The notes beneath the pieces were generated by a model, which saw nothing but the letters and a program-made list of their open reading frames with translations, searched no databases and had not been told where the DNA came from. A stretch of DNA of 64,000 nt from assembly GCA_050084515.1 (NCBI GenBank), contig CM114271.1, positions 10,850,001 to 10,914,000 on the forward strand. Reading direction: 5' to 3'. The position numbers and the translations under genes were made by a program. Each line of letters begins with the position of its first letter. Within the stretch, counting starts at the first letter, position 1. Below are positions 23,336-53,097 of the stretch, in pieces. This DNA comes from Blasia pusilla. Its lineage: Eukaryota.

Positions 23336-23337
23336 TG

Positions 23338-28715: not shown

Positions 28716-28741
28716 AAATGTGAGCCGCCCTGGAGAACACT

Positions 28742-30643: not shown

Positions 30644-30807
30644 CTTCTTGTTTACCCTGTCCAGGAATTGACCTGTCTGGTTCCATAAGGGCGCTTATAT
30701 AGTCCTTGCTCGGCTGTTGTTGTTGGCGTTGGAACTGCAACAATTAGTTTGGCGCTTCGCTGCTTCGCTCTTCAAGAACTGTCGCGCTTCGTTGCTTCGC
30801 TACAAAG

Positions 30808-33800
30808 CTAGAGGCATGCGCTTACCCCCCTTCCTCCGGTTTCAGTCCGCATAAGGTTGAGGCTCATAATACTGACGCACATGCATTCCATTGACCCGCG
30901 TGGGCAGGGATTCTCCCTGTAAGGTCCCCAAATCAGGGATCCATTATCATAGATGGCCAATACCCGGTAGGGCCCCATCCAATTTAGTTTTAATTTTCCG
31001 GGGAACTTGAGTCGCCGGTTATCGTACAACAGCACCAGGTCTCCAACGCTTATCGATTGTGGCCGGAGATGTCGATCGTAACGTTGTTTGCGTGCTTTTT
31101 GCACCTGTTCCGTCTGGCGTAACGCCAACGTGCGTGCTTCTTCCAACGCGACTAAGGTCTCATTCCATCCTTGGAAAACTTTGTTGACGGCCTCTGTTCT
31201 CGTTCCTTCCAGTACTCGATAAGTGGGCAAAGCCCATTCAATAGGGGTTAAGGGATGAACACCATAAGTCAAGAAGAACGAGGTATGCTTTGTCATGACT
31301 TTCTCCGCTGTTCGGTATGCCCACAATGCCGTGGAGATTTTCATGTCCCAATCATAGGAATAGGTGACCGTCAATCGATTCAATATCCGGCAGATCAGGC
31401 CGTTAGATTTTTCCGTCAACCCATTGGCTTTAGGGTTGTAGGGCGTGGTTTTCCGATGCTTAATCACAAAGTGGGAAGTGAGAGACTCAATAGTATTGTT
31501 TAAGAAGTGAGTGCCCCGATCACTTACTAATTCCAATGGGCAGCCATAACGAGTGATAATCATCTCGTATAAAAATTTGGCCACTGCTTCGCTATCATCT
31601 TTACGCGTGGCCACCGCCTCGACCATCTTAGTACAATAGTCGGTGGCTATCACAATATACTTACGCCGTGTTTGGCGAGTAGCGGGGGAGATAGGTCCTA
31701 CAAAGTCAATACCCCATTTTTCAAAAGGGGGCTAGGGGCATGATAGGTACCAAAGGCCACCGGGAGGTTGCCGTGGGTCGACCTGCTCTTTGACAGGCAT
31801 CACAACTCTGGATAAAGTGACCTACATCTTTGTACATAGTTGGCCACCAATAACGTGCGGCCAAGATTTTCTTGATAGTATTTTTTACCGCATAATGTCC
31901 ACCAGAATCAGCCGTATGCATGGCTCTGATGACTTGGGGAACTTCGTCTGCTTCCAAGCATCGTCGATACTCTTCATCCGCACCTAATTTGAATAGGATC
32001 CCCCGACATATCTCAAATGGTCCTATCTTATGTAAGAAAAGTGTGCGCTCCTCCGCTATCATAGGGCCTGGAAGTTGCAAAGTAATTAAAAAACGCAAAA
32101 TATCCTCATAAAAGGACTTGCACAACCGGTCTTCTCTAATATGGAACATGTCTTCGTCGGGAAAGGTATCATCGAAGGACTGGGTGAGGTCCACGTTCGT
32201 CATCCTTAACCTGGAAAGAAAATCGGCATTGGTATGCACCTTGCCGGCACGGGTGACCACATCGAAAGTGAATTCTTGGAGCAGAAGGATCCATCGCGCA
32301 ATACGACCGGACAAGTCCGCCTTTACCATTAATGGTCTGAGCGCGAAATGGTCGACATGGAAAACAAATTCGTAACCCAATAAATAGTGTCGAAACTTTT
32401 TACACGAGAAGACCATGCCTAGCGCCTCTCGTTTGGTGGTAGTAAATTTTTGTTCCGCCGAAGAGAGTTGCCGTCCGGCGTAGTAAACCGGAAAGTCATG
32501 TTTATTGTCATCTAGTTGGTTGAGCACCACTCCAATGGCAAACGAGGATGTGTCCACATATACGTGGAAGGGTTTGGTCCAATCAAGGGACCGGAGTACA
32601 GGCGCTGTTTGCAATGCCCCTTTTAAAGTATCAAATGCCGCTTGGCACGTTGGATTCCACTCCCATTTGGTAGATTTTTTAAGTAATGCAGTAAGAGCTC
32701 CTGCTTTTACCGCATAATCTTTAATAAATCGTCGATAGTATCCGACGTGTCCCAAGAATCCTCTCAATTCTCGGAGATTGGTGGGTGGTTCCAATGCGAC
32801 GATAATATCCACCTTAGCCTTGTCGACCTCAATTCCTTGCGCCGACACTCTGTGCCCCAACAAGATCCCTTGTTTCATAGCAATATACGATTTTTCCGGA
32901 TGGAGGGACAAGTGCACTTCACGACAACATGCGAGGGTTAATTCTAATTTCTCCAAGTGTTCGGCCTCTGTACTGAAGATACAAAAATTGTCCAAGAAAA
33001 TTTCAACAAACTACCACACATACTCTTGGAAGATGGAGATCATCATTCGTTGGAAGGTAGCTGGGACATTGCACAACCCAAAGGGCATCACGCGATACGC
33101 AAACGTTCCCCAGTGCGTGGTGAAAGTGGTGAGGGGCCGATCTTTTTCTCGTATGGATACTTGGTTATAACCCGAGTATCCATCCAAGAAAGTATAACGC
33201 TCGTGGCCGGCAACCTTATCCAAAATACTGTCAGTAAAAGGTAGAGGGTGATGGTCCTTTAAGGTGGCCGCATTCAATTTCCGGTAATCTTGGCACACTC
33301 TAATTTTTCCCATTTGTTTCTTGGGTACAATCACAATGGGAGACACCCACTCGCTACTTAACACTGGATAAATTATTCCTACTCTGAGACTCTGGTCAAT
33401 CTCGTCCTTGACTAGTAACGAGTACTTCGGGTTGAGGCGATACTGCCTCATTCGTACAAGGACCGCACCTTCTTTTAGGTCAATTTTGTGTTCACCATAC
33501 CGTGCTAGAATGCCTGTCATTTCATCCATGGAGTATGCAAACACATCCAAATACTCAAACAATAATCTTTTATACTTCAAGAGTTCGGTGGGCGACAAAT
33601 CCGCCGAGAGGCGTAAAGACTTCTAATCTGTAATTAAGACTGGTATGTAGTCCTTTTCTTGAACCATACTCTCTGTAAAATGGAATGTGCTATGACCCAG
33701 CTTCTCTTCTTCTCGGGTCGACATTGGTTTGCTAGGTATCGACTCCTCGTCTATTTCATAACATTCTAAATAATATACATTGGCCGAGGACTCTGTAGAT

Positions 33801-36595
33801 GTAGTTTGCTCTTGGTCTGATGTATAGCCCTCGTCGGTCGGTGGTGTTTCTCCTTGGGACGGTCGTGATTTCCACGACAACTTGATGAGCCACTTGGAGA
33901 CCTGGTCCAGAGCTTGGAATGTGAAACGTCGCCTCCTCCAATCCGTCGTCACTCGCGCACCATACAACCAGGGTCGTCCAATGAGCAAGGGATAGCCCGT
34001 GGTGGTCAGGGGCTGCAAGACTAAGTAGTCCAACAGAAATAGCACCCCCCCGAGCATGGTCGGAATCTGAGTGATCTGTCCGAGGGGTCGCTTCCGGGAC
34101 TGATCCGCCAACTGCAGGTACTTCTCGGTGGGCTCGTACTCCGTATATCCTAATGCCCGAGCTGTCTGTTCTGTCATAATGTTAATGCCGCTTCTTGAGT
34201 CAATGGGCACCTTCTTAATGGTGTGCCCCTCAATCTCTACCTCTACCTCTGGTGCTCCCAAGTCTTCCACTTCAATACGGAACAGATCCACTACTGGTAG
34301 ATGCTTTGCCGACTTCTTGGGTTTTTTACGGCTTATCTTCCACTGCTGCAAAATTTTGCCGTACACCGGTTTATCCATTAATAATTGCAATAGGGTTATA
34401 TTGGCCGGGGTTGACACCAGGTCCTTGAGTAGGTCGTAGACTTCTAAGACCAGTGGTGACGTCTCGATGGCTTGCACTGCCGAAGTCATTCCGGTTCTCG
34501 TCGGCTCGGGGGTCTTTCTCCCTTCTGGTCCTTGATCCTGACGCTCTTGAGCCTGAACCTGGTCCTCAATATCCTGATGGAAGTACTTAGGATGACTTCG
34601 ATCGAAGGCCGGGTCCACATCACCTTTTAGGATGGCCTTGCCGGCGCGAAAGGTGTCAACACCTTTCGTCTTGGGGTCTTGAGCTTCGAGCGAAGATGAA
34701 CCACCTTTCCTTTCCTTGGGGGTCTTCGCGGTCTGACTCTTGGACCTCGTGGTGACAGCCATAACGGTTTCTTGGAACTCTTTGGGCCAGTCCGACGATT
34801 CTTTGGTGTCCACTCTGCTTGAGTCTTCCTCTCTGATAGTGACTCGCTTTGGCCTGGGGGACCCTAACTCTTCCACGCAGACAAGTTGTACATTGACATC
34901 ATTCTTGGACTCTGGTTGGGCTCCTGGAGTGTTGACATATTTTACCAACAACAGTGGAACCTTGGGCTCCGGGCATTCCACTGTAGTGTGCCCGCCTTTC
35001 TTGCAATTCCTGCACAAGGGATTGAGTCCTACTGGCCGCTTTGGGTTTGGGCAATTATTAGCCCAATGGTCAGCCGCACCGCAATTATAACAACAGTTCC
35101 TTTTTATGGGGGGCGTGAAGGCCGCCGCGCCCATAATCTGCCTCAAGGGTCTCTGCTCCCCGTATTCTGGAGGTACATATCGGGTGATCCAACTTCATCC
35201 AGGATTTGGGGGTGGCACAGCTTGGATGGCATAGCACCCTTCCCACTGTTCGGGTTCATACCACCCTTCTTCAGTAGTGGGATCTTCCTGGATCCAACGT
35301 ACATCCCTCTGCATGTGGCATTCCTGGGCAGTATGCCCTTGGGATCCGCAGGTACTACACCAAATGTTGGGCCTCATCAGACCTGGGCGTCTTCTGGGGT
35401 CCTTCTGGGCCGCCGGATGTACCTTCATTTTTGCAATTTGCTTACTCAACTCTTCCATGGCCGACTTGCCGGCCTTCCTTGCTGTCCCCCTTACTGGACT
35501 TTCGGACCACTGGGGAAGGTGTTTTGTGGGTCGGGTTTTCCTTCGGTGCTTGGGAGAGTGGTGGCGCGTGCTCTTTCCTTTCCGTTTAGATTTTGCGTCT
35601 GGTTCCGAGTCCGAGGACTCCAAAGTATCCCCCATAGAGGATTCCGTGTCTGTGGAGGACGCTTCGTCCTCTGATAAAGCACTAGTTTGCGACAAACCTC
35701 GGCATTGGTGACGCCGTCTTCGTGTTTTACGGGACTTCTCTGAGGCTTTGTAAGCCTCTGCGGAGGCAATGACTGCTTTGAGGGAATCACGTTGGCCTCA
35801 CCGGCAGTACCGGTCCATTTCCTTGGATAGTCTTGACACGAACCAATCTACCAGTTGCGAGGTAGTGGTGTGTTCTAGTTTATTCACCAGGCTGCGAAAC
35901 CTCTGTGTGTACTCCCAAAGAGTTTCCTTCTTTTTCCGTTTCAGGTTGCAAAGCTTCGTAAGAAGCCTGTCCTCGAACTCCAAGTCGCGGAACTCATGTA
36001 GGAAGGACTCCAATACCCTCTTCCATGTTTCCGTGACGTCCGCTCCAAGACCCTCGTACCACTGGCTTGCTCGCTTCTTGAGCAGGCCCGGAAAGACTCG
36101 CAATAAGTCCTCTTCTGAACCTTCCCCATTTGCCTTGGCTACATGGGTAAATTCCAGCACAAAGTTGTCCACATCATCTCGCCGTCCTCCAGCAAAGGTG
36201 GGGTACCTTAGCAGCGTCTTCCTAGTATGAGCCATGGGGAATGGTCTGCTGCTGGGTCCCGGGCTTGAGGCTCGGAAGGGCGGAGGTAGCGGCTCCGCTC
36301 TAGTTGATTGGGTTGGCCCCGCGTCTTCGGACTCTCCAAAAGGGTCCCAGGTTGACTCTTCGTCCGACTGCGAACTGGTAGGGGACGTAGGGGAGAGTTT
36401 GTTCCTGTCTCTCTTCTTGCTCTTGGGCTTTGTGTGAAGACAAAGACCGGGAGACAACCTAGGAGGTCTCCAAGCCGGGTGCTCTTCTTGTTGCTTACTC
36501 CTTCTATCGGCTCGCTGATCTCGCGAAGAGGGCCGGGAGCCTTCCATGAGCCCCTTCTGGGATCCGGAAACTTGCTTCCGCACCCACGGTCGCAA
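30808..36595 (-). pseudogene. gag-pol polyprotein (gag, 3 CCHC knuckles, protease, RT, RNase H, integrase), disrupted
   Basis: CSTCGSQGHTAQEC, CYNCGAADHWANNC, CRNCKKGGHTTVEC. Protease PIDSRSG. RT motifs WVSPIVIVPKK, LDGYSGYNQ, MPFGLCN, FLDN. RNase H YVDTS, DFLSR. Integrase H..GGH..C..C, VSDRG, GLTEKSN, WMGPY. Several stops and frameshifts. Confidence 0.93.
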
Positions 36596-36979
36596 AAAGG
36601 TAGGGATCCATGGAGGGGAAATTAAAGGTTTCTACTTCCTAAGCCTACAGAAGTGTGCCAGGTGCTCTTAATCTTCCTGCCAGGTTTTCCTCCCATAAAG
36701 AGAAGTACCGGGTCATCACCAAGTACAATTGACGTTCATGGGTTGAGCACCGTTCGGCGACTGGTTTATTGACAAGGCTAATTAATTGTTCTATCTTTTC
36801 TAGCACCAATGCAGCAAATCTGTTGTAATCTTCTTTCATCCATTGTCTGAGGGGAATAGCTAGAGAGATCAGATGGTCTTCAGTAAGCACTAGCTGGTTG
36901 GGTCTTCTTAGAGACGAGGCTTCTTTCCCCGCTCCCGGATTCCCCATGTATCTCTCTCCCTTTTCAGCAAAGAATATGA

Positions 36980-36997
36980 TCCCCGGTAGCGGCACCA
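36980..36997 (-). other. Primer binding site (tRNA-Asp-like)
   Basis: TGGTGCCGCTACCGGGGA, 17 nt inside the 5' LTR boundary; resembles the plant tRNA-Asp PBS TGGCGCCGTTGCCGGGGA. Confidence 0.75.
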
Positions 36998-37014
36998 AAA
37001 AGTTTCTTGCTATA

Positions 37015-38215
37015 TGTAATGTACAAGTGTTTCTATTTTATAGTCGATTTAGTAAGTTCAATCCTCAAGAGGATCATTGCTTGATGAAAAGAGAGTTCGG
37101 AATTACAATTATGTTGTAATAATTGTATTTAAATGTGTGTGAGTTATATTCAATGTCTTATCAATATCTTCTGATATTTCTTAGTACCAAAGGATCTTTT
37201 CTCGGTTCTCTCTAGTGGAATTGACAGCATGTTCAGGTAGATTTTCCTCTCGACATCAAGAAACCTCACAGAGATCTCAACACAGAAGCTGGCTTCTCCT
37301 ACTTTCGGAACTCAATCCGTCTCGGTAGGTTACTCTCTGTCAAACAGATTTCCTACAACTCATGTTGATTATTTCACTGATGAGAAAGGTTCTCCTGATT
37401 TACTCCTCATTCTGCAGACCCAAAAAGAATACTCAGACATAAGAATCGCACATCAGAATGAATGAATGACTGCTTTACTACTCCATCAAGAATGAGAAAG
37501 CTTCAAAGTGTATACAAGCTTGAGAGGGTACTTCTCTCTTGCTCAGACCATTCCTACAACATAAGGACTTCGTAAGAGAATGATGATAATGACTTCTGCT
37601 TTGCTTCTTAAATATTCGTTGGAGTGGAAGTGATCCTAAGATTCGAAACGTTCTTGATGAAGCTAGTGTCTCTTCACTATTTCTAACTACCTAGATCTAT
37701 GGTTCTCTTAGCTTTTCCTACGATCCCTATGAATCCGCGGTACAAAATTGTTCTAACTACCAATTTGATAACTGTTTTAACATGTGTCTAACTGTTTTAA
37801 CATGTGTCTCTTGAAATCACTGTCCTTCTTAGCTTCGCTTCGTTGGACTTCAGGAGGACGAATTACTCCATGCTTCGTTCTTATTTCCTATGCTTCGTAC
37901 TTCGTGCTTCGCGCTTCGTTAAAGAGCGAAGTACTTCGTTCTTCTTTTCTTCGTGATGCTTCGTTATGTAGCGAAGCACTTCGTAGAAAGAGCTTCGTAT
38001 ATCTTCGTTAGGCTTCGTTAAGCTTCGTTATTGCGTTTTCCTCTCCTCTAAGGCAAATCCTTGATCTTCCATCTCTCTGCCTTGTCCCAGGAGCTTCGTG
38101 ATTCACTTATTCTTCTTCATAATAATAAATAATCATAATCAAAATCATAATATACAAGAGTCTTCGTTGAATAAAAAGATATATTCTTCAAGAGTACAAA
38201 ATTGTGGGTATCACA
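37015..38215 (-). repeat. 5' LTR
   Basis: Direct repeat of 27485-28702, followed by TSD CCAAA. Confidence 0.96.
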
Positions 38216-38669
38216 CCAAACTTACGGCACTCAATCTACAATCCCTCCCATTGAGACGTACTATGCGGCAACAAGCGATGTGGTGCGGCAAATCGGCTGA
38301 TCTATCGTTTCATGGACAAAACATACCCTCAACTCTGGACATCCCGCATAGGTCTATGTCCACTAAACCCATACATCAATGATGCTCTCAGCATCAACAC
38401 GAAACCCAATATCCCAAATAACTATTTGCAGGCCTTGTATACGGGTTGCACCAACATTCTTGATGCAATCCGTCGCTCTCCGACTGGTTGCACACTCAGG
38501 CAACTCGTCGGTTTCCGACGGGTTGCACACTCGGGCAACCTGTCGCATGCGACAAGTTGCTTGGTTTCTTTGGTTTGAAATCCCTATAGTGCCCACGCTT
38601 CTCAACTTGAGGTGCAACTTTTCAAAAAATTCTCACCGTGAGCTCGGCAAGACAAAATAGTGAACTCAC

Positions 38670-40700
38670 CTGCCGCATGAAGTTTCCCCATTGTCTCATT
38701 CGTACAGTCCACCAACTCAGCCAAGAGCACAACTCTTTGTACTTCCCCTCAATCGCATGCTTCCTCCACCACCCATGAAGTTCTTCTTGGCATTCCATGG
38801 CCTATTTTAAGGTTTTGCTGTCCTTGCAACGTTGGAGTAGAGTGACATGCTCTGTCTTCTTATTCTCCTTGATGCAAGATTTGGTGTACCGGGTCACAGA
38901 CTGTTGCCAATAGAAAGCATCTAACCTTTCCCTCTCCAGTTGAACCTCTTCATCCCAAAACACTTCCCTGATAGCAATCCACCCAGGTTGTGCATTGTCC
39001 GCCATGAACCCATAAATTTCCGGAGGTGGCCTTTTGTTTTTCTTCACCACCTCCAATAAGAGTAACCAGCACATCTTCAAACTGACAACGTCTTCTGCTT
39101 TTACATCACAGACAAATATAGTTTTGAGTCCCTTCTCCACATGGTCATAAATATGAGCACCCATTTTCAACCATCCGTTCAACACTCTATAGCAAATATC
39201 AAAGCTTACCCAGCTCCAGGAAAGATCTTCTCCTTCCCTCATTTGATCTATAAGATCGAGGCCCCTCGACGGACCTCTCGTTGACATTTTGAAGACATAG
39301 GCCCTGGATCCTTCGCCTCCTTGGCCGATGAACTGCCAGCTCTGAATGAATGGAAATCTGGAGTTGGCCTTGATTCTAGCAATGGCATCCATTCCGGCTG
39401 TCTTTCCATCAAATACCTGTATTTGACGCAGAAAATTCCAGAAGCATTCAGGATCAGCGAAAAATGCGAGATTTTCCCGTAGCTGTTTCACCTTAGCAGC
39501 CGTGATCTCGCCTTGTGGAGGGATTCCAAGCAGTTGTTCACATATTTGTGATGATGTTGTTAACTTGATCACTCCGAACTTTGAACCCGGAGAGTTTCTA
39601 TAGACCTCGGCCACTTTCTTCGCCACATCCTCCTTGATGTGTCTCTGAATTGCATCGGTCACAGGATGAGTGTGGGAGCCAACATGAACTGCCAGCCTTG
39701 TGTACTCAAACGTGGAACCCAAGTCGTGGACAATGAAAAATATGTATGCAGGACACGCTCCAACGTAGAAAGGGGATGCCTGACAATGAGGACATCGATG
39801 GCCTCCCGGTGGTATGGTGGCACCGACCTCATATGGAGTTTTTGCATTCTTGGGGGGAATTGCAACGTATTGACCTACCCGTTGCGCTCTAGATACGGGC
39901 ATGCTGGACTTCTACACTCCAAGGCTCCAACGCATTGGCGGCAGAAGACAATCCAAGGACCATTTGGAATTGAAGCACTAGTCCGTTGAAGATTGCACCA
40001 TCAATGACGATCAGACTTTCTGTCCATACCCTTCAAGTGTCCTCCATCTTTCTTTTGAGCAAGAGCAGCAAGTGGAGGTAACTCAAAAATGCAATTACCA
40101 TCGTACGTGGGCGGCAGCTCGTCGACAAGAATATGCTTGAACATTTTCAAGGCCAAAGACGATAGCAAACTATTGCCTGATACTCGCAAGAGGAACGAGT
40201 AGGGGGACAAAGGGCCCGGTTGGTGTCCAACATATCCACTGAGGTTGACAACATCTGGAATGTCTTCAGGAAGTACAACATTGTTACGAGCATGTGAAGT
40301 TGGAGTCAATGCTGGATCTATTGAGCTAGGAGTTGCAAACATAGAGCTCGGTGCACTAGGAAATTCTCGACCGTCTACTTGGGAAACTAAGGAATTCAGA
40401 GGCAAGCTGTAAACTCTATATTGACCATTTGCTAGAGGTAGGAGATTCCATACTTTACTGTCTGCAATCACTAGCTGGATTATCTCACCTATTATGTCCT
40501 CCGTACCGTCCATCATAACATCCTTGGACACAAAGATGGTTCCAATTTGAAGAAGAAATCGAACTGAGAGAAAATTTTCATCCATTGGTATGAAAGACTC
40601 ATGAGCTTGCGGTCGAACTATTTTTGATTGAGGAAGGGAGGCTAGATGACTGCCACAAGTGAGCTTCACATAATTATCCATTCCCAAATGATTCCACCGG
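38670..40700 (-). pseudogene. GCM-like zinc domain + MULE-type DDE transposase exon, copy B
   Basis: DRH*WC...CVGALECRSPACP...CPHC...C...HVGSHTHP (WRKY/GCM-like); VFKMS; WVSFD (D1); FMADNAQ (D2); DAFYWQQS at the CxxH position; WLSWW..R..QWGNF|GTGAGT donor at 38670. Contains stops and a frameshift. Confidence 0.78.
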
Positions 40701-41174
40701 GTGGAGATGAGAATAAGAATAAGAATGAGAATGAGAATGTTTAATTTATAGTGCATAGAGACTCAGATTCTCTTGACAGAATTTGACTGACAAGATGAAG
40801 TTTGGTAGGTGAGATTTTCTGACATGATGGATTGAATTCTGTTGCAACCTATTGGAGTCTGATCGGTTGCAGAATTTGGGAATCAGAGATATGGGTTGCG
40901 AAGCACCCAGTTCTGTTTTTTGTTTCCATGTCCCAATGCAAGTTGGAACCCGTCGGAGTCCGTTGGGTTGGTACCCCCTTCTTGCCGATCAATGGTATTT
41001 TGAGTCGATTTTGCTAGCATCAAACACGAGACATCATTTGCATTTGCTAAGGCAACCAATTGTTGGGGATTGTCACGGGATTGTCCAACTCAGGGTAGAC
41101 CTTGTGACCCGTCGGATTGCAAGGGATTGCCTCGGAACTATGCGTTGTCGCATTGTTACCCAAGGGATAGAAAA

Positions 41175-41760
41175 TCGTGCAATCTGTCGATAATCGACGG
41201 GTTGCCCAGGTACCTTGCCTATTACCCCAAGATGAGGGAAGCAAGCAACCCGTCGGTCTCCGACGAGTTGCGCAGGTATCCCGCCTTGTTATCCCAAGAT
41301 GAGGGAAGCGTGCAACTCGTCAGCCTTTGACGGGTTGCGCAAGTGCCTCGCCTTGTGACGCTTATATGAAGAAAGCGTGCAACCCGTCGGCCTCCGACAA
41401 GTTGCACGGGTACCCCGCCTTGTTATCCCAAGATGAAGGAAGCGTGCAACCCGTCGACCTCCAACTGGTTGCGCAAGTGCCTCGCCTTGTAACGCTCACA
41501 TGAAGGAAGCGTGCAACCCGTCGGCCTCCGACGAGTTGCGCGGGTACCCCGCCTAGTTATCCCAAGACGAGGGAAGTGTGAAACCCCCCGGTCTCCGACA
41601 GGTTGCGCGGGTACCTTGTGTTCTTGCCCGAAGACGGCGGAGGCGCGTAACCTGTCGGTCTCCGACGGGTTTCCAGGATAGCTCGGCTTTTTAACCCGAG
41701 GAGAACGGATGCCTGCAACCCGCGGGAAGCATGCAACCCGTCAGAGCCGTCAGGTTGGTG
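41175..41760. repeat. 67-bp-period tandem array of the 27-bp palindrome in the divergent promoter
   Basis: GCAAC starts at 41179, 41245, 41312, 41379, 41446, 41513, 41580 and 41647. Spacers are homologous and alternate between two types. Confidence 0.9.
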
Positions 41761-41847
41761 GTTTTCACGTCCAGACTTCCATAACCGCCGACACGTCACC
41801 GTCAGAACGACGGTGCGACCCAATGGCCAGCCCTACGGCTTGAAAAG

Positions 41848-41855
41848 TATAAATA
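41848..41855 (+). promoter_or_regulatory. Candidate TATA box of the ParB/MTase-like gene
   Basis: TATAAATA in GC-rich context, 233 bp upstream of the ATG at 42081. Confidence 0.5.
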
Positions 41856-42080
41856 GGCGAGGGTTTGCTCATTTTCGGTTTTTCGTTTCGCAATCTCGAT
41901 TGCTCTTCCGTGTGGCAGCTGACCAGATACCAAGGGGCGCTTTACACGGTGACTCATTGAGAGACTCATGGCGAGACGATTCAAGCGAATCATCAAGGCG
42001 ACTCATCGCGACATCAGCAAGGCAACTCATCGTGCGTAGAAAGTAACTTCATTGTCGAGGAGGATGTATTTTTGGGAAGC

Positions 42081-44853
42081 ATGACGAGGAAAAAATCTCA
42101 AGCAAGCAAAGTTGGGAGCTTCACTCCCAAGTCCATGAGGACTCTTGCGTCATCATCTCCAAGACCTCGTTTGGCCAATGAGATAAGGCAGAAAGAGATC
42201 GAGGAGCGGGAAAGGGAAGCGGATATGCACAGGCAGGAGCTTCTTGAAAAACGTGTTTTGGAGGTGCTCAAAAATAGAACGTAGAGGCTGAGGCATCGCA
42301 GGCCTTGAAGAAAGGGATCGGTGAGGAAAAGCGTGAAAAGAAGCGTCTGGACGCGTTAGTGAGGAGAGCAGAATTGGGAAAAGCTCGAAGGGAAAAAGCG
42401 AATGCCATTGAAGAAAGCCAGGTCCGTCCAACCGAAAGTGTTGAGATGCACCAAAATGTCCCAGATGAAGTCCAGAGCCACAATCAATATAAAATCGGTT
42501 GAGGAAACGGCCGAAGTTCAAGTGACGGACGATGAGGTCATGAGGACCGCCAGCGTGGAGATGGTGGACATCTATGAAGAAGCACGAGAGCAGTCTTCCT
42601 CGTCTCTGAGCCCGGCGGAAGAAATCGACCTCTATCGGATCGACGAGTTTCCACTGGACTTGCCAGCAACTGTCCCAGAGCAGTTGGCGGGCCAAGATAC
42701 TGACCCAACCTTTGAGCGGGTAAGAAAAGATCTTGGATCTTTGAGTTATGTGAAGGCCTATATTTCAATTCATTGGCAATTCATTGTAGTTTATTAACTT
42801 TGTCCCCATTGTGACAGGTTGTAAAGCAGATGGCATTGATGGAGGGCCAGAACGACTCGAGAATTCCACTTTGCCGATTGCGGAAAATGGAGTACATCCG
42901 CAAAATTCAGTCTGACGAGGATATTGCGAAGCTGAAACAGTCGGCAACGACAACATCCTACGTCGACAACTTCCCTCCGTTCTATGTTCAGCCTTACGAT
43001 CAACATGGAACCCAAGCGCTAGTGACGGAGGAGGACTTGGAAACGCTTAACACATTCTAGAGGATGAGAGATCAGGAATTCAGAAGAGCAATTGAGGGGA
43101 CGGAATTCAGCTGGATGCAGAACCTCTGTTTCTTCATCTGGGATGGAAACCACAGGTTCATGGCGTGGACCCAGTTTGCAGAGGAGCGCCAAAATTCATT
43201 GGAGGCGCATTTTTGTGTGAAGGCAGTCATGCTAAATCCATACCCTCATCACATGGCGACGGTGGAAATGGCCATGCGTGCCATGAACACGTAAGTTTCC
43301 TCTTCCTTTTGTTTTTTGATTGCTGCAAACCGTCGGACTCCGACGAGTGTTTAACTAGTGGTAACAAAATATCGGATGCCTTAAAGCAACTCATTGGAGT
43401 CCGACGAGTTGCTTGACTGGCCGCTGTTTTTAGGATATTTCTGGCCGAAAATAACTGGTCGGAGTCCGACGAGTTGCTTGACTAGCCGCTGTTTTTAGGA
43501 TGTTTTTGGCCGAAAGCAACTTGTCGGAGTCCGATGAGTTGCTTGACTGGCCGCTGTTTTTAGGATGTTTTTGGCCAAAAGCAACTCGTTGGACTCGACG
43601 GGTTGCATTTTCCGCCACGGGTAGGTGATCGGAGTAGGGGAGCTTGAGTTTTGGCATCAAATTGCAGCTTTACTTGAAATTGCGCAACCTGTCGGACTCT
43701 GATGGGTTGATATGTTCACTTTTTCTGCGGAAACCACTCTCTGAATAAAAATCATCTGACAACCTGTCGGAGTCTGACGGGTTGTAACCAAGCAATCAAA
43801 AATTTGAATGCAATCCGTCGGACTCTGATGGGTTGCAATATTTAGCTCTTAGCTACCATTTCGACCATGAGGTGTAGCGACCTGTCGGAGTCCGACGGGT
43901 TGCAGAACCCATGTAGCTTGCAAAAATTCTATAGTGTGTTTGGATGTGCAGGATTATATCCAAGGGGAACATCACCCACCACTGGATCCAGGATTGCAAT
44001 TGGGTGAAGAAAGTGCTAACGACGCATCCGACACAGTACAAGGGGTTCTTGGGAGACACTCTTTTTAATGAGATGCTGGCAAAGGGGGCTCAAATAAGAA
44101 AAAAGACTTGGGCAAATACATTTATTTCCCAAGATGCAGCCGTGACAATCCTTTGTTGGTCAAAGATACAGGTCGCCAAGAAGAGCGCTTCATTGGAGCT
44201 GGAGTAGAGGGAAAACGTGTATGCGTCTGAGCATGCTAAGTTCTTCCAAGCTGCAGTATGTGCAGTTACGAAGTACATTGCAAGCAAGATGCAGCGCTAC
44301 ATCGCCATTCTCAACCCTGAACTTGGCCCCGATTTCTACAAGGAGCTGAAGGCGATAATCAAGCGCCTGCAGAAGAGGGGTGAAGATCCGCATGGTCAGA
44401 TTGGGGAGAAAGTGTTTCTCAACCGCGTCCATAGATTTGCCTTGTCTGGAATTTCGGAATTCAGGAGAATCTGACCGATGAAAATCAGTTTGGAGGACGC
44501 AGAGGCCCAAAAGAGGGCGGCACACCATCCTCCGGGTGTCTATGATCCAGTGATCTCCCACTGGTTCCGTGAATGGTCATTTTGGGACTCGTTTTGGCTT
44601 CTCTAGAAGTCCATGCTCGTGGGTGTCCAAGTGGAGCTGAAAAAAATAGAGTTTGTTCCGGAGGAAGCAAAACTGGAGAGTGCTGAAGATTTCAAACTTT
44701 GGCTTGATGACATCCAGGACAAGCCCATGAAAAACCCAGGGTTCAGGACAATGTTCAAGGATCACATCCTCCCTCACGCAGACCTGGATGAAGAAATAGA
44801 GGCAAAGAAAAGGGATTTTGCAAAGAAGAAGCGAGATCTTGAGGAGCAGGCGG
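42081..44853 (+). pseudogene. ParB/Srx-domain gene, copy 1 (exons ~42081-42719, 42818-43290, 43952-44853), truncated by a Gypsy fragment
   Basis: GT-AG introns at 42720-42817 and 43291-43951. IPLCRL...IRKI...DIAKLKQS...PPFYV...FIWDGNHRFMAW. Premature stops. Confidence 0.8.
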
Positions 44854-44854
44854 T

Positions 44855-47800
44855 TGATGCAGGAGCGAGCATTTCAGTTGCTCAAGGACAGGTTGACGTC
44901 CGTACCCATCTTGAGGAGACCGATCAGGGGGCGTCCTTTCCAATTGCACACAGATTGGAGCATGTTGGGGCTTGGAGCGGTGCTCACCTAGCATGATGAT
45001 GAGGGTAGAGAGTTTGTGGTGGCTTACGCTAGTCGCTTTCGAACAACGCCGCAGAGGCTAAGCACACTCGTATGAGGGTGAGTGCTTGGTCATGTGTGGG
45101 CTGTCGCGCATTTCAGGTGTTACTTATTTGGCAACCCCTTTACCATCATCACTGATCATCAACCACTGAAGTGGTTGATGGAGTCCGAAAAGCTTACAGG
45201 GAAGCTTGCGAGATGGGCTCTGTTATTGCAGGAGTATGATTTTCAGGTGGTACATAGACCTGGGACGCTCAACCAGGATGCAGATGGGTTGAGTCGTAAC
45301 CTATGCCCGAGTCAACGAGATGCGATTGGAGCTCAATGGCACGGAGAGAGTGATGAGGAGTCGGTGCCAAGATGGCACGCGTCAGCCTATTTAGGCATGT
45401 TGGCTATGGAGAGCCAGAGTGTGGAGACTTCGATGGCGAGGTCTAGTGGAGAGTCCTTGGATCCCGAGGCCAGTGAGGACATGACAATTGGCCGAGATAT
45501 TCATGATGATGGAGTAGTCTTGGAGTACCTTCGTACAGGCAGCCTTGCGAGCACCATGGATGCTAGAGAGCGGGATTGGATCCTACAGTGGGCCAGACGG
45601 TTCCGTTGGGAGGGGACACATGTTTTGAGGGTTTGGGAGGATGGCAGAGTACGCGTAGTGCCGCATCCTTTGCAAAGAGCACGACTAGTGCAGCATGCCC
45701 ACGAGGAGTTGGGTCACTTTGGGGTGAAGCGGACGTACAACTTGCTCCAGATTCAGTATTGGTGGCGAGGCATGCAGACTGACGTTCAGCAGTTTGTTGC
45801 CAGGTGCATGGTGTGTGATCGGGTCCGAGCATCGTTCAATGCTCCGACTCCACAGTTGCATCCGTTACCGATCATGGGCTTAGGATATAGATGGAGTTTG
45901 GATTTTGCAGGACCTTTGCCCTTGACTGAGCGTCACAGTCGTTATGTGTTGGTGATGGTCGAGCACTTCTCGAAGTGGATCAAGTTGGTTGCATTGCCTG
46001 ACAAAGCGAGTGAGGGAGTAGCTTATGCCTTCCTTGACAGAGTGTTGAGTCATTATGGCACACCAGCTGAGGTGTTGATAGACCACGGTACTGAGTTTCG
46101 CGGTGAGTTCCACGCCTTGTGTGATCAGGCGCTGATCGACCACCGCACGACTTCGCGAGATCATCCCGAGGCGGATGGATTAGCGGAGAGAGTTTTGCAG
46201 ACCGTGAAGAGGGGTTTACGCAAGTATGGCTTGCAGAGAGGTCATCTAGGAGATTGGGACCTCTAGTTGCCATGGTTGGCGATGGGATATAGATTCAGCA
46301 GGCAGGCATCCTTAGCGTCTTTTTCACCGTACTTGCTACTTTATGGTCGAGAGCCAGATTTACTTGCGGCCACTCGTCGAGATGCTGGTGAGGTGCTGGA
46401 CCTTGATGACCCAGATGTATGGGTGTGAGCATATTCTCAGAGGGCTGAGTTATTTCAGAGAGTGATGTCCATGGCGTTCGAGAACTTGGCGATTGCACAA
46501 CATCGGGATACGTTGAGGTATGCGACTATTCGGGGTGGTGGTTATCGACCAACTATCCGGAGGTTTCATCAGGGAGATTATGTCTACTTGCAGCAGACGG
46601 CACCGACGACGTTGGATGTGACTGCAAGGCGCACAATCCTGAGAGTGCGTGACATTTTGCCATCGGGTGTTCTCTTGCTGGAGGGACGCGATGGTAAGGT
46701 ATGGAGGGACCATGTGCGTAACTGTGCGCCATGTCACCTTCCTAACATTGATGGTACAATAGATCCGAGCTTAGCAGTAGTTCTTGCAGGCTTGCGTTGT
46801 ATGTTGTGTGGTTCTGCCCGTGGTGCGGCCACAATGCTAGTCTGTGATGGGTGTTCGAGAGGATGGCATATGGCATGTTTGACGCCACCTCTCACTAGGG
46901 TTCCTCAGGGACGATGGATGTGTCCCAGATGTACATAGAGTAGGTAGTTCTACATTCCAACTTGTGTCTGTGACATGGATGACAAGGAGGCGACTAACGA
47001 TGGGGCCACATGAGCACCCGGCCTTCTTGCTCTTAGTGTCCGAGAGATGTATGTCATGGTAGGTAGGGATAGATGGCTATCTGGAGTTAGAGGGACCTAA
47101 CCACCAGCTAGGGGGGCGATTGGAGATATTTTGGTACTTCTTGTCTCGTTGTTTGGATGCCATGAGTTAGCATGGGATCATGCGTGTTTGTGTGTGTGTT
47201 CGGTGACAGCGATGTGTATGCGCATGACAGCTGTCACGTCTTTTAGGATAGATCGGTGAGATCTAATAGAGTGCCTTTGTGAGTAGTGGAGGACACGCTT
47301 AGTCGGTCGCGGATGACGTGCTGAGACCCCAGGAAACCTGAGATAGCAAGTTTCCCCTTCGTTTCGGCTCATTTGGAGCCATATTGAGGAACTTACTATT
47401 TTAGGTAAGTACCATTTTGAGTATATGATCGACTTGCTATTTTTGGTAAGTGGCCCTTGACCTCCTACATCAGGTCAAGATCCAAGGAGGTGACTTGGGA
47501 GAATCGGTTACCATGGAGAGAGCTTGGGAGAGGGGATGGGTATACCTCAAGGAGAGAGAGCTTGAGAGCTCATTCTCTCGTTGTTGAACCTCTTGGCATG
47601 AGGCGGCGGAGCTATGGTACCTTGCCTTGTGAGTGTAACCCAAGCCTCTAATTAGGAGAGTGGGTTTGGTTTGACATGAGAGAGAGTGCACACCTTTGAG
47701 AGCTATGGTGTGAGATGGTGGAGAGAGAGATTGGATCTTACTTTATTGGAGATATTTTGGTACTTCTTGTCTCGTTGTTTGGATGCCATGAGTTAGCATG

Positions 47801-47870
47801 GGATCATGCGTGTTTGTGTGTGTGTTCGGTGACAGCGATGTATGTTGTGTAGCGATGTGTATGCGCACGA
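44855..47870 (+). mobile_element. Ty3/Gypsy 3' fragment: RNase H, integrase, C-terminal PHD finger, PPT and partial LTR
   Basis: LHTDWS..GLGAVL, TDHQPLKW, ADGLSR, HEELGH..C..C, WSLDFAGP, DGLAER, CMLC...LVCDGCSRGWHMACL...WMCPRC. PPT AGGGGGGCGA at 47110-47119; TGTCACG at 47232 as the likely LTR start. Confidence 0.88.
46795..46938 (+). CDS. PHD finger at the integrase C-terminus
   Basis: C4HC3 pattern CMLC-x11-CDGC-x4-HMAC-x14-CPRC with the conserved W. Confidence 0.92.
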   Translation, partial: RCMLCGSARGAATMLVCDGCSRGWHMACLTPPLTRVPQGRWMCPRCT

Positions 47871-50800
47871 AACCTAGCAACAGAAGATAGAGGAGCAAGA
47901 AAGAGAAGCAGAAATGCGCAGGTAGGAGCTAGAGGCAAAGCTAGCGCTGGCGCAACTGGCCAAGCGGAACTCCGAGGTGGAGGCATCCAAGGCGATGAAG
48001 AAGAGGATTGAGGACAAGAAGAAAGAGAAGAAGTGTCAGGATGCGGCAATCAGGAGAGCTGAATTGGCGAAAGTGCAGAGGGAGAAGGCTATTGTCGTTG
48101 AAGAAGATAGTCCCGCACGTCCTACAGATAGCGTTGAAGTGGGAGACGTCTCCCCCTTGAAATCTAGCAATTCTATGAATGAGAAAATTGATGAAGGAGG
48201 AGGGGATGAGGACAACAAGTGTGGAGATGGTTGACACCTTTGAAGAAGCAGGAGAAGAATTGTCTTCTTCTTAAGCCCAGTGGAAGAAATTGACCTTTTC
48301 TGTGTGGATGAGTATCAAGTGGAGTTGCCTCCTATTGTCCTAAAGCTATTGGCCGGCCTTGACACTCAACCAATTTTTGAAAGGGTAAGCAGTCTTCATA
48401 ATTTCTTATGGAGCTTCCGAGATCCTTACTTAGAAGAAAATTGCAGGACATTCTCAAAATTCTTGTAGGTTGTTGAGCAGATGGTAGTGTCGATGGCCAC
48501 AAGGCCCCTAGCATTCCTCTTTTTTGACTTCGGACAATGGAATACGTGCATGAAATTTAGTTGGAAGAAGACATAGAAAAGTTGAAGCAGTCATATGCAA
48601 TAGCTTCTTACGTCGACAACTTCCCTCCGTTCTATGTTCAGCCTTATGATGAACATGGAATGTTGTCCCAAGTCACTGAAGAAGATCTGGAGAATCTGGA
48701 TACATTTTGGAGAATTAGGGATGCGGAGTTGAGAAAACCGATTGAAGGAACACAATTTAGTTGGATGCGGAGTTTGAATTTTCATATCTGGGATGGGAAC
48801 CACAAGTTAATGGCGTGGTTTAGTTTGTAGAGGAGCGCCCAAATTCATTGGAGGCGCATTTCTGCGTGAGGGCACTCGTCCTCAATCTCTTTCCCCATCA
48901 CATGGTGACAATGGAGATGGCTATGCACTCCATGAACACGTGAGTATTTCCCATTCTCTTTCATATTTTTCTACTTGCTCCAACCCATTGGATTCTGACG
49001 GGTTGCTCTAATGTCCATAAGAAAGAATGTCTGAAAGTATAGAAGACGATATCAGCAACCCGTCGGAGTCTAATGGATTGCATCTAGGGTCCTGTGACTT
49101 CTTTACTAGACCATCCTATAACCCCTTGTAGTCCGACGGGTTGCAAGATGGTTAAAGTTGTAGCGAGATTTCAAGATGAAATGAGTGTTCTGCAACAATT
49201 TGGAGTCCGACGGGTTGCAGATGGTCAAAGTTGTAGCCAAGTTTCAGGATGAAACAAGTGTTATGCAACTCGTCGGAGTCCAATGGGTTGTAGAATAGTC
49301 TAGTGAAGAAGTCAAGGAAGCCCTAAATGCAACCCATCAGACTCCGACGGGTTGCAAGCAACTTTTTTTACGCTTATTTGTAGGAATCCGATCGTGTGAA
49401 TTGCGCTTATGGGGCTTGCTTGCAACCCATCGAACTCCCACCAGTTGCATTGATTTGCAACCCATCAAACTCCAACGGGTTGGCGCAACTATAATGTGAA
49501 CCTATCTTAGCGGCAATCTCGAGGATTTGTCGCAACCCGTCAGAGTTCGACGGGTTGCACATCGATGCCATCGGCCTAGAGTGGTGCAACCCGTCGGAGT
49601 CCGACGCGTTGCACTTAGTTTCAGACATACTTTCTTCTTTGATCTTGTGTGCAACATGTTGAAATCCGACGGGTTGCAGGAGATTAAAATTCTCACTTTG
49701 GATTGATGATTGCAAGATTGTCTTGGAGGGGAACGTCACCCATCTCTGGATCCAAGAATGCAACAGAGTGAAGAAGGTTCTTACAATGTACCCATTGCAG
49801 TACGAAGAATTCCTAGGAGAGGACTTAGTGGATGAGATGCTCGCCAAGGGAGCACAGATCTAAAAGAAGACTTGGGCACATACATACATCTTCCAAGATG
49901 CATCTGTCACCATTCTATGCTGTTCGAAATCCAGGCAGCAAAGAAAAGCGCCACACTGGAGCTGGAGCAAAGGGAGAACATTTCAGCGTCGGAGCGAGCT
50001 AAGTTCATCTTTGCTGCAGTGTCAATAGCCACAAAGTACACTGCGAGCAAATTGCAACGTTATATAGCTGTCTTGAACCCAAAACTCGACCAAGAATTCT
50101 ACAAGGAGTTGAAGGCGATCATTAAACGCTAGTGAAAGAGGGAGGAAGATCCACATGGTCGAATCAGAGAGAAGCTTTTAGTGGATCGCGTCCACAGGTT
50201 TGCGCTCTCTGGGACTTCCAAGTTCACGCAAATGAGACTGATAAAAATCAATCTCAAGGGGATAGAGGCACAGAAGCGGGCAGCATACCACGTGCCAGGG
50301 GTATCAGACCCTCTAATCTCTCACTGGTTGAGAGAATGGTTTTTCTCAGATGCATTGCAGCTGCTTAGGAAGTCCATGATCACATGTCTTCAAGTTGAGC
50401 TCAAGAAGATTGAGCATGTTTTGCAGGAGGTCATCTTAGAGGCTGTTGAGGATTACGAACTTTAGCTAGATGACATGCGTGGTAAGCCACCGAAAAACCC
50501 CGGCTTCACAACGATGTTCAAAAATCATATCCTGCCACAAGCGGATCTTGACAAGGAAATTGGCAATGCAAAAAAATGGGATTTCGCAAAGAAGAAGAGG
50601 GATCTTCAAGAAAAAGCGGCCAAGTCCTCCCGACAACAAGCTACCCAACGGATTGTATATAGGTTCCTCATCTCCTTTGTGAATGCAAGTACCTGGAGCA
50701 AATATCCCGCAACATGCAAATTGTGGGCTTCTCCTCAAGATGGAGAAGGATTCTTCATGTACGACATGAAGATGGGGGAGGATATGAGTGATTGGGAAGT

Positions 50801-53097
50801 GTTGAATTGTCCAATTTGGTTAGACTTCAACAACCCTGAAGACATGACCAACAAGAACTTGCGAGTGGTGTATGATGCACTCGTATTTGGAAGGGACGAC
50901 ATCCACAACCTGTTGGAGGTTGAGAAATATTTTGAAGGAGATGTCGAGGAGCAAGCCATCCAGACCATCGAGTTGGTGTCCAAGGTAGTAATAGCCAAGG
51001 ATAAATCCACAACGGGCTTGAAAGTGAAGGCGAAGGGGTCGAGGCTTTCAGAGGCAAAATCCTCAAGATGGATTCGGGAAAAGGGACAAACAAGGGAGTC
51101 GTCCAAAAAGATGCTTGTAGAGTCCGAAGATAGTGAGACACCTATAAGTAGGCAGCAAACTTGCAAGAAGCAAAAGTGGGAGGCACCTGGATCCTCCAAG
51201 AGAGATAATAAGTATGTGAAATACACTCTACCATCCTTAGGCAGACATAGGGACACTACGAGCATGATCACTATCCTTCTCTACTAGACTTTTCTCCTTG
51301 ATTAACTGCAGAGTTTTTCTAGTCAGTAGTCCACCGTTGCAATCGAGAAGCTGGCCATTTTAGAAGGAAAGCTTCTTTGAAATGGGCATGGCCCATGGAC
51401 TGTCCACGGGGAAGCTAAGAAGGTGGCGATGGATCTCCTAATAGAAAATTTTCCTTTGGGATTCCGATTGTGGGACGACAATCCCTCAGACATTATCTCG
51501 GATTGGAATGCCCCACTTACTTATGACCAGATTGCTCTTTTGTTTTCTTTCGTGCACGCATGTCTGAGTGACAAGGGGTGTTTCTTGGTACTGATTGGAG
51601 GGAGTGAAGACGAGCTCTTCAGCCTCGAGTGCGTGAAGAGATGTCTCAAGTGGCGTATGGCACAATCTTAGTCGATAAAAAATGAACACCCACTCAGATC
51701 TGCATCAAATCAACTCTTTCAATGCTATTTTCTTTTTCAATGTTTTTTTTTTTTTTTCAGAAAACTGCAAGAAAAAAGTCCTTGTTTTAGCCTCTTGGTT
51801 CAAACAAGCAACCCATCGGATTTGGAGGGTTGCGGGAATTCTATTGTGAGATGAAGTGGAATCTGTCTCACAGTGACGGGTTGCATTTCGAGCCAGAAAA
51901 CTAGATTTGCAACCCGTCAAAACCCAACGGGTCGCAACTAGAATTTTGTCTAAGTTGATGAGCAACCCATCAGGATCCAACGGGTTGCAACTAGAATATT
52001 TTCTCAACTGATGAGCAACCCATTGAAATCTAACGGGCTACAAATAGATCTTTTTCTAAGCTCATGAGAAACCCGTCGGAATTCAACGGGTTGCAACTAT
52101 AATTTTGTCTCAACTGATAAGCAACCCGTCAGAATCCGACGGGTTGCAACTATAATTTTGTCCAAGTTGTACAGCAACCTGTGGGTTTCCGACGGGTTGC
52201 ATGCTTCTTCCACCATAAATCTGACATCATTTTGCACCTGTCTTGTGCATAGATTGAGCATTCTTATGTCTACTATTTTGTTAGATCGGAGCACAATTTC
52301 CAAGTGTTTCAAATCCATTAGATCCATGCTCCAATGGGTTCACATTGGATAGCCTCTATAATTCCCTACCCCTCGGCAGGAATTTTCATGCTAGAAGGTA
52401 CAAATGTGCTTGGAGGAAGGGAGAAGTCACTGGCGCTGATGTAGACGCTCATGGAGCTCTACTCAAGACCGGGTGACTTGGTCTTGGACTTGGTTGGCTT
52501 ATCAGGGGCGAGTATCAGAGGCTCGTGAAAGAATGGAAGGAATATTCTCTTCCTTGAGGGAAGGATGGAACTATTCGACCTTTGCAAGGACGCAAAGGGG
52601 GACTACAAAAGGCTGGTGGGAGTCTACAACTCGCCTCCAAAGTAAATTGCACTTGCAGCAAAGCCAATGGTAGTGACACCATCGTTACTTCCTGTTATTC
52701 GGAGAATCGGGAAGACAAGGCCGACAGTCATTTTGGAAGAGCTCTCGAATGATGATGAGTGAGTTCAATCGATTCATCAGGTTCAATCGATTCAAGCGTT
52801 TTGGAGTTGGGATTTAGTGCTTTCAAGCGGCCGAGCACCTATTGATACTCGATGGGTGTTACTTTGCAGAGCATACAAGATATATTGCCGAGAAAACGTT
52901 GGGAACTCTCTCATGATACATGGGACCAATATGGTGCATCTAGGGGGGCAAGGCTTTCGAATTTCCCTACATTCTCAATCCCCATCTACAATCGGGCACA
53001 TGAGCTAGTTGTATCTGCAGAGATTTCTATTGTACAGGAACCGAGGAGAGTTAGGAGTAAATTTGTAGATGACAAGGCAGAAGAACTCATAGACTAG
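47870..53097 (+). pseudogene. ParB/Srx + beta-class DNA amino-methyltransferase-like gene, copy 2 (nearly complete, 4 exons)
   Basis: IWDGNHK (48792-48806); MDLLIENFPLG...WN...LSDKGCFLV (~51430-51590); GGREKSLALM*TLMELYSRPGDLVLDLVGLSGAS..S*KNGRNILFLE (~52413-52558). Palindrome-filled introns at ~48940-49715 and ~51711-52250. Ends FVDDKAEELID*. Confidence 0.78.

Follow-up and report, generated by a model that had tools for sequence, protein, structure and literature searches.

Decayed copies of a two-gene, probably Mutator-like transposon in Blasia pusilla with a methylase-like accessory gene and family-specific palindrome arrays

A 64-kb stretch of Blasia pusilla DNA (GenBank assembly GCA_050084515.1, contig CM114271.1, positions 10,850,001 to 10,914,000 of the forward strand), hereafter the window, consists of eukaryotic, repeat-rich DNA in which a locus at 38.4-44.9 kb (copy A) contains a transposase-like gene (-) together with a spliced accessory gene (+) that is read in the opposite direction. 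The locus and the further copies of its genes almost certainly represent a real two-gene element. By a modest preference, copy A is interpreted here as the decayed remnant of an old two-gene cut-and-paste DNA transposon, in which palindromes in the element's own DNA would be bound by one of its proteins, acting as a dimer and most probably the product of the accessory gene. The original prediction, made from the sequence alone, had joined the genes and the palindromes into one mobile element, and this view gained support from an independent family on metagenome contigs, in which the divergent pair and a family-specific palindrome recur in equivalent positions.

In the window, the predicted divergent arrangement was recovered, with the transposase-like gene at 38670-40762 (-), the spliced gene starting at 42082 (+) and approximately 1.4 kb of shared DNA between them. 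The accessory gene is present in the three copies that had been proposed (A, 42.1-44.9 kb; B, 47.9-53.1 kb; C, 63.9-60.7 kb), all of them decayed, while the transposase is represented by two copies, the second of which (T2) had been overlooked earlier. The homology of T2 to copy A stops approximately 200 bp upstream of the T2 start, and T2 has its own palindrome array at the 3' flank. The whole element is estimated to have spanned roughly 10-15 kb.

The palindrome shared by these copies is 27 bp long and has the form GCAACCCGTCGGA-N-TCCGACGGGTTGC (13-N-13). Its predicted abundance was confirmed by 20 matches in the window with up to three mismatches, compared with none in 100 shuffled sequences, and by 55 sites with up to six mismatches, compared with none in 20 shuffles; all 55 sites are located inside element copies, T2 included. 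The arrays differ in unit length and flanks, the palindrome core being the sole part that they share. The centre base is free (A12, T13, C15 and G15 among the 55 sites) and both 13-nt arms are retained, which fits a symmetric dimer site or a hairpin. As had been claimed, palindromes are present in the promoter region, in accessory-gene introns and in the 3' flanks (in copy C, intron 3 at 61560-61870 and the 3' flank at 60147-60550), but none was shown within the transposase intron, where they had also been placed; the nearby sites lie 3' of the last recognizable exon of that gene (38465-38560) and 5' of its start (40844-40977).

The decay of the palindromes consists mostly of C/G transitions, with 83 at the eight CpG positions and 60 at the 16 other arm positions, while transversions number 23 and 25, respectively. 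This CpG-biased pattern agrees with a silenced repeat whose cytosines have been methylated over a long time. It would also be expected of methylated silenced repeats if the palindromes were hairpin-prone satellite expansions or small foldback insertions, perhaps feeding small-RNA silencing, rather than sites for a protein, and tandem arrays of variable unit length are generally known to be common in transposon non-coding DNA. Such an origin is nevertheless regarded as quite improbable, as only the 13-N-13 core, with its free centre and kept arms, is common to units of 53-73 bp, no site among the 55 lies outside an element copy, and a family with approximately 30% protein identity carries a different palindrome in equivalent positions.

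That second family was reached through a metagenome scan with the transposase alignment, which returned 123 relatives (80 loci retained); after near-identical contigs had been merged, there were 15 distinct loci with 5 kb or more of sequence upstream of the transposase match. A six-frame hidden Markov model (HMM), seeded with window exon 2 only, detected the N-domain of the accessory protein in ten metagenome loci. Among the 15 distinct loci, five carry the accessory N-domain exon, four in divergent orientation and belonging to one family, and one on the same strand as the transposase (L070). The four divergent loci (L033, L036, L037 and L075) are copies whose DNA is 77-82% identical over the two genes; as in the window, their accessory gene lies upstream of and divergent from the transposase, although the proteins of the two families are only approximately 30% identical. 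The related family has its own 26-bp palindrome, T(T/C)CAACTTT..AAAGTTG(A/G)A, which forms arrays both between the genes and within the accessory gene. The outer bases CAAC..GTTG were considered as a half-site common to both families and were ruled out on spacing (17 versus 14 nt).

Recurring palindromes (at least three like sites) were found in three of the five loci with the accessory domain, in none of the ten without it and in none of the shuffles; in L075 there are three palindrome sites, which were split by clustering. The proposed linkage of the two genes and the palindrome reappears in other loci, the gene pair in 5/15 and the arrays in three of those five. Since the palindromes track the accessory domain, the accessory protein is favoured over the transposase as their partner. 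Were they instead binding sites of the transposase, as subterminal repeats that also occupy the promoter in the manner of Ac/Ds or En/Spm, the accessory protein would be unconnected with them. The arrays at the outer flanks (38465-38560, 23467-23762, 53240-54150 and 60147-60550) agree with such a role, the Cys/His-rich segment of the transposase homologues, which by eye resembles WRKY/GCM1, could bind DNA, and no other terminal inverted repeat (TIR) was found among four candidate ends. On the other hand, the majority of the sites are internal, in the promoter region and the accessory-gene introns, and not at the ends, and the distribution of the arrays (0/10 loci without the accessory exon, 3/5 with it) argues against transposase sites, which are considered unlikely.

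The contigs of the related family have a GC content of approximately 33%, and one of them contains an open reading frame (ORF; L033, 20161-20532) that by eye resembles a fragment of an NB-ARC resistance gene; on these grounds, they appear to represent plant-like host DNA in metagenomes. A segment of approximately 920 bp, 76% identical between L033 (11769-12690, 3' of the transposase) and L037 (140-1081, beyond the accessory gene), is probably a separate small repeat.

The transposase-like gene of copy A includes a 369-codon ORF (38802-39911) that reads on through an in-frame TAG (38799-38801) to 38670, with a GT donor at approximately 38669. Five homologues (P0001-P0005; 700-855 aa) were matched at E values of 1e-47 to 3e-35 and approximately 31% identity. 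None of them has a precomputed Pfam domain, and one of the five matched Transposase_mut (PF00872) at E=0.034, whereas the window transposase ORFs gave no MULE (Mutator-like element) or Transposase_mut profile match in Pfam, and a profile search of the PDB with the transposase returned nothing. Language-model look-alikes of P0001 were mostly MULE/SWIM clusters, with scores of 0.83-0.89 (guide value 0.9). Judged by eye only, the spacing D..D..CxxH and a Cys/His-rich segment appear Mutator- and WRKY-GCM1-like. The segment is kept in T2 (24906-25433, -; C..LEC..LGC ... HRCLHC) and in the homologues and is missing in copy A between 39911 and 40001, which indicates an internal deletion in copy A. 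The family is probably Mutator-like, with a DDE-type transposase. With regard to the MULE/GCM transposase of the original prediction, the leads to this label are weak, namely the single match at E=0.034 and look-alike scores below 0.9.

The accessory gene has evolved under constraint as a protein-coding gene. In copy A, introns 1 and 2 have canonical GT..AG boundaries and are in phase. The exon DNA can be aligned between the copies, whereas their intron DNA shows no alignment except for the palindromes. In all five ungapped exon comparisons between copies, the proportion of nonsynonymous differences (pN, 0.15-0.34) was far below that of synonymous differences (pS, 0.71-1.0, saturated), indicating that the copies stem from lineages which separated while still under purifying selection and became inactive only afterwards. 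We read the predicted protein as one of approximately 1,200 codons in four exons, with a charged N-terminus (the product of exon 1 being probably helical), an N-domain of approximately 150 residues, a helical region and a putatively methylase-derived C-terminus. Comparison of exon 3 with phage ParB-methylases by hhalign gave 0.08%, and no helix-turn-helix (HTH) was detected. When the copy B exon was used to scan metagenomes, 93 pattern matches and no relative were obtained, and the sole HMMER match of a 273-aa ORF in 1.84 billion representatives, a bacterial repeat protein, was judged spurious.

Mutator-like elements are generally known to capture genes often, and Pack-MULEs are mentioned in the available text of PMC12477816. 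The accessory gene might thus be a captured host or foreign fragment, carried passively and with no function in the element, a view with which its absence from 10/15 distinct related loci is compatible. Such a passive passenger is, however, very improbable here: the gene has been kept beside transposases that are only approximately 30% identical, pN is well below pS, the introns and the position relative to the arrays are retained, and no host paralogue was found in the protein-collection searches.

The C-terminus of the accessory protein probably has a fold derived from bacterial or phage beta-class N6-adenine/N4-cytosine DNA methylases. Single accessory exons matched no Pfam family in the initial search. 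The C-half of the copy B domain (window:52397-52735, stops read as X) matched the Pfam family N6_N4_Mtase (PF01555) at E=0.0081 and 16.6 bits, over profile positions 165-218 of 221, that is, at the profile end. In the PDB it matched the adenine methylase DpnA (5hfj; E=0.0038) and, at equivalent positions, M.RsrI (E=0.43), and in PHROG four DNA-methylase families (best E=1.6e-4). Templates were taken from a motif scan of IMG/VR for phage methylases among ORFs with long N-terminal extensions; of the ten checked against Pfam, eight are fusions of ParB_N and N6_N4_Mtase. Against these eight fusions, the C-half aligned on motif I with an hhalign probability of 85.9% (E=5e-6), the controls with reversed and unrelated templates remaining at or below 0.2%. 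The N-half had no Pfam match; combined with the related family, it reached 10% (E=0.003, 83 columns) in a colinear position on motif IV. The N-half thus occupies template columns 223-308 and the C-half columns 384-432, which places motif IV before motif I, the beta-class order. Stretches corresponding to motif IV, motif I and the C-terminus can be recognized in the related family, as matched by eye and hhalign only; the single-ORF HMMs of that family did not reach the window, nor did the window methylase-half HMMs reach the related family. The profile matches to bacterial and phage N6/N4 methylases agree with the prokaryote-type origin that had been proposed for this fold.

The N-domain, encoded by exon 2, has the conserved pattern IPLCRL..R, FYVQP, FFIWDGNHRFMAW and VMLN. 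A ParB-like form of it (IPLCRL..R, FYV.P, F.(V/I)WDGNH(R/K/Q/H)L.AW, ..MLN) can be recognized by eye and has been retained in the window as well as in 4-5 related loci, the Arg position being variable and approximately 45 residues being inserted before the motif. The ParB/Srx signature with which it was compared consists of a strand, a DG.HR/GxxR-type motif and a helix, preceded by I-P-x..R.

According to the interpretation preferred here, a protein encoded by the element would bind the palindromes as a dimer, the accessory protein being the likeliest candidate, and the element would thereby recognize its own DNA. For the accessory protein itself as the binder, the chances are judged to be even. 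Its methylase-like domain might mark the bound DNA or, more likely in view of its motifs, hold or read the DNA without canonical methyl transfer, and in this way the element would regulate its promoter and its chromatin, an effect analogous to that of TnpA in En/Spm or of VANC in VANDAL. In this scheme, we infer the palindrome binder, the binding as a dimer, the methylation and the anti-silencing effect.

A number of observations weigh against this interpretation. Stops or frameshifts occur in every window copy, and the copies at related loci are pseudogenes too. No element termini, TIR or target-site duplication (TSD) were found when four candidate ends were compared, a check that the original prediction had called for; the copies are truncated or nested, and the comparison gave palindrome-to-palindrome matches only. 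The presence of arrays at both element ends also suits binding by the transposase. L070 carries the accessory exon and no palindrome array, and the co-occurrence of palindromes and accessory domain rests on two independent families only. Furthermore, no full-length relatives were found in collections of 5.8 billion proteins (word-indexed search at 'longer' lengths with exon 3 and a 9-row N-domain alignment as queries) and 1.84 billion representatives.

The same applies to the two domains. The methylase matches of the C-half lie below curated thresholds (16.6 bits versus a cut-off of 26.7 bits) and cover only approximately 55 residues, and the N-half alone reached an hhalign probability of 0.5%, although it was placed on motif IV. 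At motif IV, the window copies read NFPL (copy B) and NLPL (copy C) instead of (D/N/S)PP(Y/F/W), and the S-adenosylmethionine (SAM) loop reads DLVGLSGAS or DLVGLPGAS instead of DPFxGSGTT (FxGxG); the related family has DVPS, NVPS or DIPF and DLNCGTCTC or DFNCETCTC, respectively. With a motif IV lacking the PP(Y/F/W) core and a degenerate SAM loop in both families, the domain may be inactive and may no longer be a canonical enzyme, and methylase activity in intact copies is regarded as doubtful. The beta-class methyltransferase of the original prediction is retained as a consistent, if weak, likeness of fold (Pfam, DpnA, PHROG and hhalign) and is weakened as an activity by the non-canonical catalytic and SAM motifs.

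The predicted ParB/Srx domain was not recovered by any sequence, profile or fold search and is represented by the by-eye motif pattern only. Neither the window exons nor any of the nine rows of the alignment had a ParB/Srx match in Pfam at E<=10; single-sequence and profile searches of PHROGs, NCBIfam, PADLOC and the PDB with the N-domain gave no ParB match, and its comparison with the eight phage ParB_N domains by hhalign (0.1%) remained at control level. AlphaFold2 models of the N-domain were unusable, with predicted local distance difference test (pLDDT) values of 36.4 (3-row alignment) and 44.8 (9-row alignment), and the best Foldseek match of the 9-row model had E=1.7. Thus, of the matches expected from structure and profile comparisons, that to N6_N4_Mtase was obtained weakly and that to ParBc/Srx was not (pLDDT 36 and 45). 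A ParB/Srx identity is considered somewhat less than even in likelihood, and this estimate stems mostly from published algal precedents.

To our knowledge, the way in which transposons evade or steer host silencing is understood mechanistically for very few elements, namely VANDAL with VANC and Spm with TnpA. VANC, encoded by Arabidopsis VANDAL Mutator-like elements, acts on short motifs in the element's own non-coding DNA and causes loss of methylation; it has no methylase-like domain. TnpA of maize En/Spm, an element-encoded protein distinct from the transposase, binds repeated motifs that lie subterminally and overlap the promoter, and it influences transposition as well as the methylated state of the element. 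It differs from the system described here in belonging to the CACTA superfamily, in being a different protein and in having 12-bp repeats instead of 27-bp palindromes. The likeness to VANC would be a functional analogy only, and a sequence relation is not expected. VANC is named in the available portions of both bioRxiv 10.1101/2025.02.11.637652 and PMC12973397.

Closer parallels have been reported for algae. In Ectocarpus, the transposon Sola1-1_Ec32 carries, opposite its transposase, a gene for a 1104-aa protein with ParB-like and N4C/N6A methylase domains, which according to the accessible text is proposed to bind and epigenetically modify its own transposon (Dinatale et al. 2025, PMC12477816). 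As far as that description extends, the two systems are alike in having a large accessory protein (1104 aa compared with approximately 1,200 codons here) encoded on the opposite strand and containing a prokaryote-type methylase or, in the window, methylase-like domain. Sola1-1_Ec32 is compared with the window by description; it belongs to the Sola1 superfamily of a brown alga and has a reported ParB-like domain, whereas the window element is probably Mutator-like, with non-canonical catalytic motifs and with no ParB-like domain recovered. In red-algal Plavaka elements, as outlined in the available part of Petroll et al. (bioRxiv 10.1101/2025.02.11.637652), PAG2 combines an N6A methylase with SET and PAG3 a ParB-like domain with a 2-oxoglutarate (2OG) oxygenase; tandem inverted-repeat arrays adjoin PAG3 and are proposed as its own targets, and homologues are also reported in Mutator elements of Chondrus. 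Inverted-repeat arrays adjoining an accessory gene and an N6-adenine methylase domain (methylase-like in the window) within an accessory gene are features that these excerpts share with the window. On the other hand, PAG2 and PAG3 are described there as separate genes of giant 17-19-kb EnSpm/Plavaka elements, whereas in the window there is one gene and the arrays also lie within its introns. The algal accessory features present here comprise a gene beside and opposite the transposase, a methylase-like domain and adjacent inverted-repeat arrays.

Similarity also extends to phages and to other eukaryotes. The phage/prophage fusions of ParB_N and N6_N4_Mtase resemble the accessory protein in the alignable motif I region, the colinear placement of the N-half on motif IV and the beta-class order; they differ in length (approximately 420-590 aa), in their canonical DPPY and DPFxGSGTT motifs and in their ParB_N part, which is unaligned to the element N-domain (0.1%). 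Dam-type methylases fused to ParB-HTH have been described in chlorophytes and chytrids (Iyer, Zhang and Aravind 2016, PMC4738411, in the text available). As presented there, these proteins are alike in being eukaryotic acquisitions of a phage-type ParB-linked adenine methylase, although they belong to the Dam/M.EcoKI group, while the similarity of the window protein is to the PF01555/DpnA group.

The designation as a candidate new system is weakened by these precedents, since ParB-like/methylase accessory genes and inverted-repeat arrays are already published for brown and red algae in the parts of PMC12477816 and bioRxiv 10.1101/2025.02.11.637652 that were available. A full-text literature search gave no description of such a module for bryophytes or other land plants, although transposon libraries in supplements may hold relatives, and the available text of a survey of active plant TIR transposons (PMC12973397) contains no mention of it. 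The concept would thus not be new in kind, and the element would be a variant in a new host lineage.

The first descriptions of accessory proteins in which DNA recognition is joined to a DNA-modifying domain of prokaryotic type are very recent and come from algal transposons. The plant-like setting adds a defined candidate site (13-N-13, centre base free), another family whose site differs and a methylase fold with altered catalytic motifs. These findings provide concrete protein-site pairs that can be tested and raise the question of whether the domain still methylates. As the window copies are dead, the value of the locus lies in pointing to the family rather than in the locus itself. A broader interpretation, which is tentative and rather unlikely, is that a Mutator-like clade of land plants (bryophyte-like genomes) has co-inherited the transposase, the accessory protein and family-specific 13-N-13 arrays since before the transposases diverged to approximately 30% identity. 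The accessory protein would consist of an unrecognized domain for DNA recognition joined to a phage-derived methylase fold without the canonical catalytic tetrapeptide, protein and site would co-evolve as a self-recognition pair, and a pseudo-methylase acting as site-bound reader or shield, or else a non-canonical modifier, would control the promoter chromatin. If true, this would be a eukaryotic equivalent of a parS/ParB-type system that has been put to new use in transposon self-identity.

Table 1. Features of the element copies and palindrome arrays in the window
Feature	Position	Strand	Description
Copy A, left flank	38438-38669		3' of last recognizable transposase exon; palindromes 38465-38491, 38500-38526, 38535-38560
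Transposase-like gene, main exon	38670-39911	-	Catalytic region, pattern FMADNAQPGW ... CxxH-like
Transposase-like gene, N-terminal exon	40001-40762	-	By-eye match to N-terminal region of homologues P0001-P0005 (YLPP.YDG..IFELPP)
Divergent intergenic region, ~1.4 kb	40763-42081		67-bp tandem array and degenerate palindromes 40844-40977
Accessory gene copy A, exon 1	42082-42720	+	ATG at 42082; Lys/Glu-rich, frameshifted
Accessory gene copy A, exon 2	42818-43289	+	Conserved N-domain; in-frame TAG 43058-43060
Accessory gene copy A, intron 2	43290-43951	+	GT..AG, phase-consistent; ~7-9 palindromes including 65-bp x3.5 array
Accessory gene copy A, exon 3	43952-44864	+	Helical region; broken off near 44.87-45.0 kb by retroelement fragment
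Accessory gene copy B	47926-53097	+	Near full length, decayed; without promoter and transposase
Copy B, methylase-like N-half	51381-51671	+	Motif IV position DLLIENFPLG, then W..LTYDQIALLFSF..LSDKGCFLVL
Copy B, intron 3	51672-52396	+	Interrupts methylase-like domain; approximate boundaries; 53-bp x5.5 palindrome array
Copy B, methylase-like C-half	52397-52600	+	GGREKSLALM.TLMELYSRPGDLVLDLVGLSGAS..GRNILFLE, the motif I region
Copy B, 3' flank	53240-54150		Scattered palindromes
Accessory gene copy C	60100-63910	-	Decayed; gene 63.9-60.7 kb; exon 2 and 5' part beyond window edge
Second transposase copy T2	23846-25920 (with flank, 23330-25920)	-	75% identical to 38663-40753 over 2.1 kb
Array, 67-bp unit x7.9	41195-41722		Between the two genes (promoter region); one palindrome per unit
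Array, 65-bp unit x3.5	43383-43606		Copy A intron 2
Array, 73-bp unit x2.3	49126-49294		Copy B intron 2
Array, 53-bp unit x5.5	51909-52201		Copy B intron 3, interrupting methylase-like domain
Array, 58-bp unit x4.3	23467-23717		3' of second transposase copy T2
Array, 35-bp unit x2.2	38471-38546		3' of first transposase copy

The surroundings of the element copies (Table 1) contain further mobile DNA. A Ty3/gypsy-type long terminal repeat (LTR) retrotransposon occupies 28490-38215 (-), between T2 and copy A; its ORFs at 30808-33010 encode RNase H and integrase domains, and a 213-bp repeat (28490-28702 and 38003-38215, 97.7% identical) may be part of the LTRs. The retroelement fragment that truncates copy A (45082-47841) contains an RNase H/integrase ORF (45082-46266), followed by a PHD-finger ORF (46429-46938), and includes a perfect 97-bp direct repeat (47119-47215 and 47745-47841). 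Between copies B and C, an intact 233-codon ORF (58450-59151, -) matches the Pfam family Methyltransf_16 (lysine methyltransferase) at E=1e-28 and is probably a host gene unrelated to the element. Another 27-bp palindrome, CTCAAGGAAC-N7-GTTCCTTGAG, is repeated three times or more within 200 bp at 16696-16899; no relative of either element gene was found near it, and it may represent an array that belongs to a further element family.

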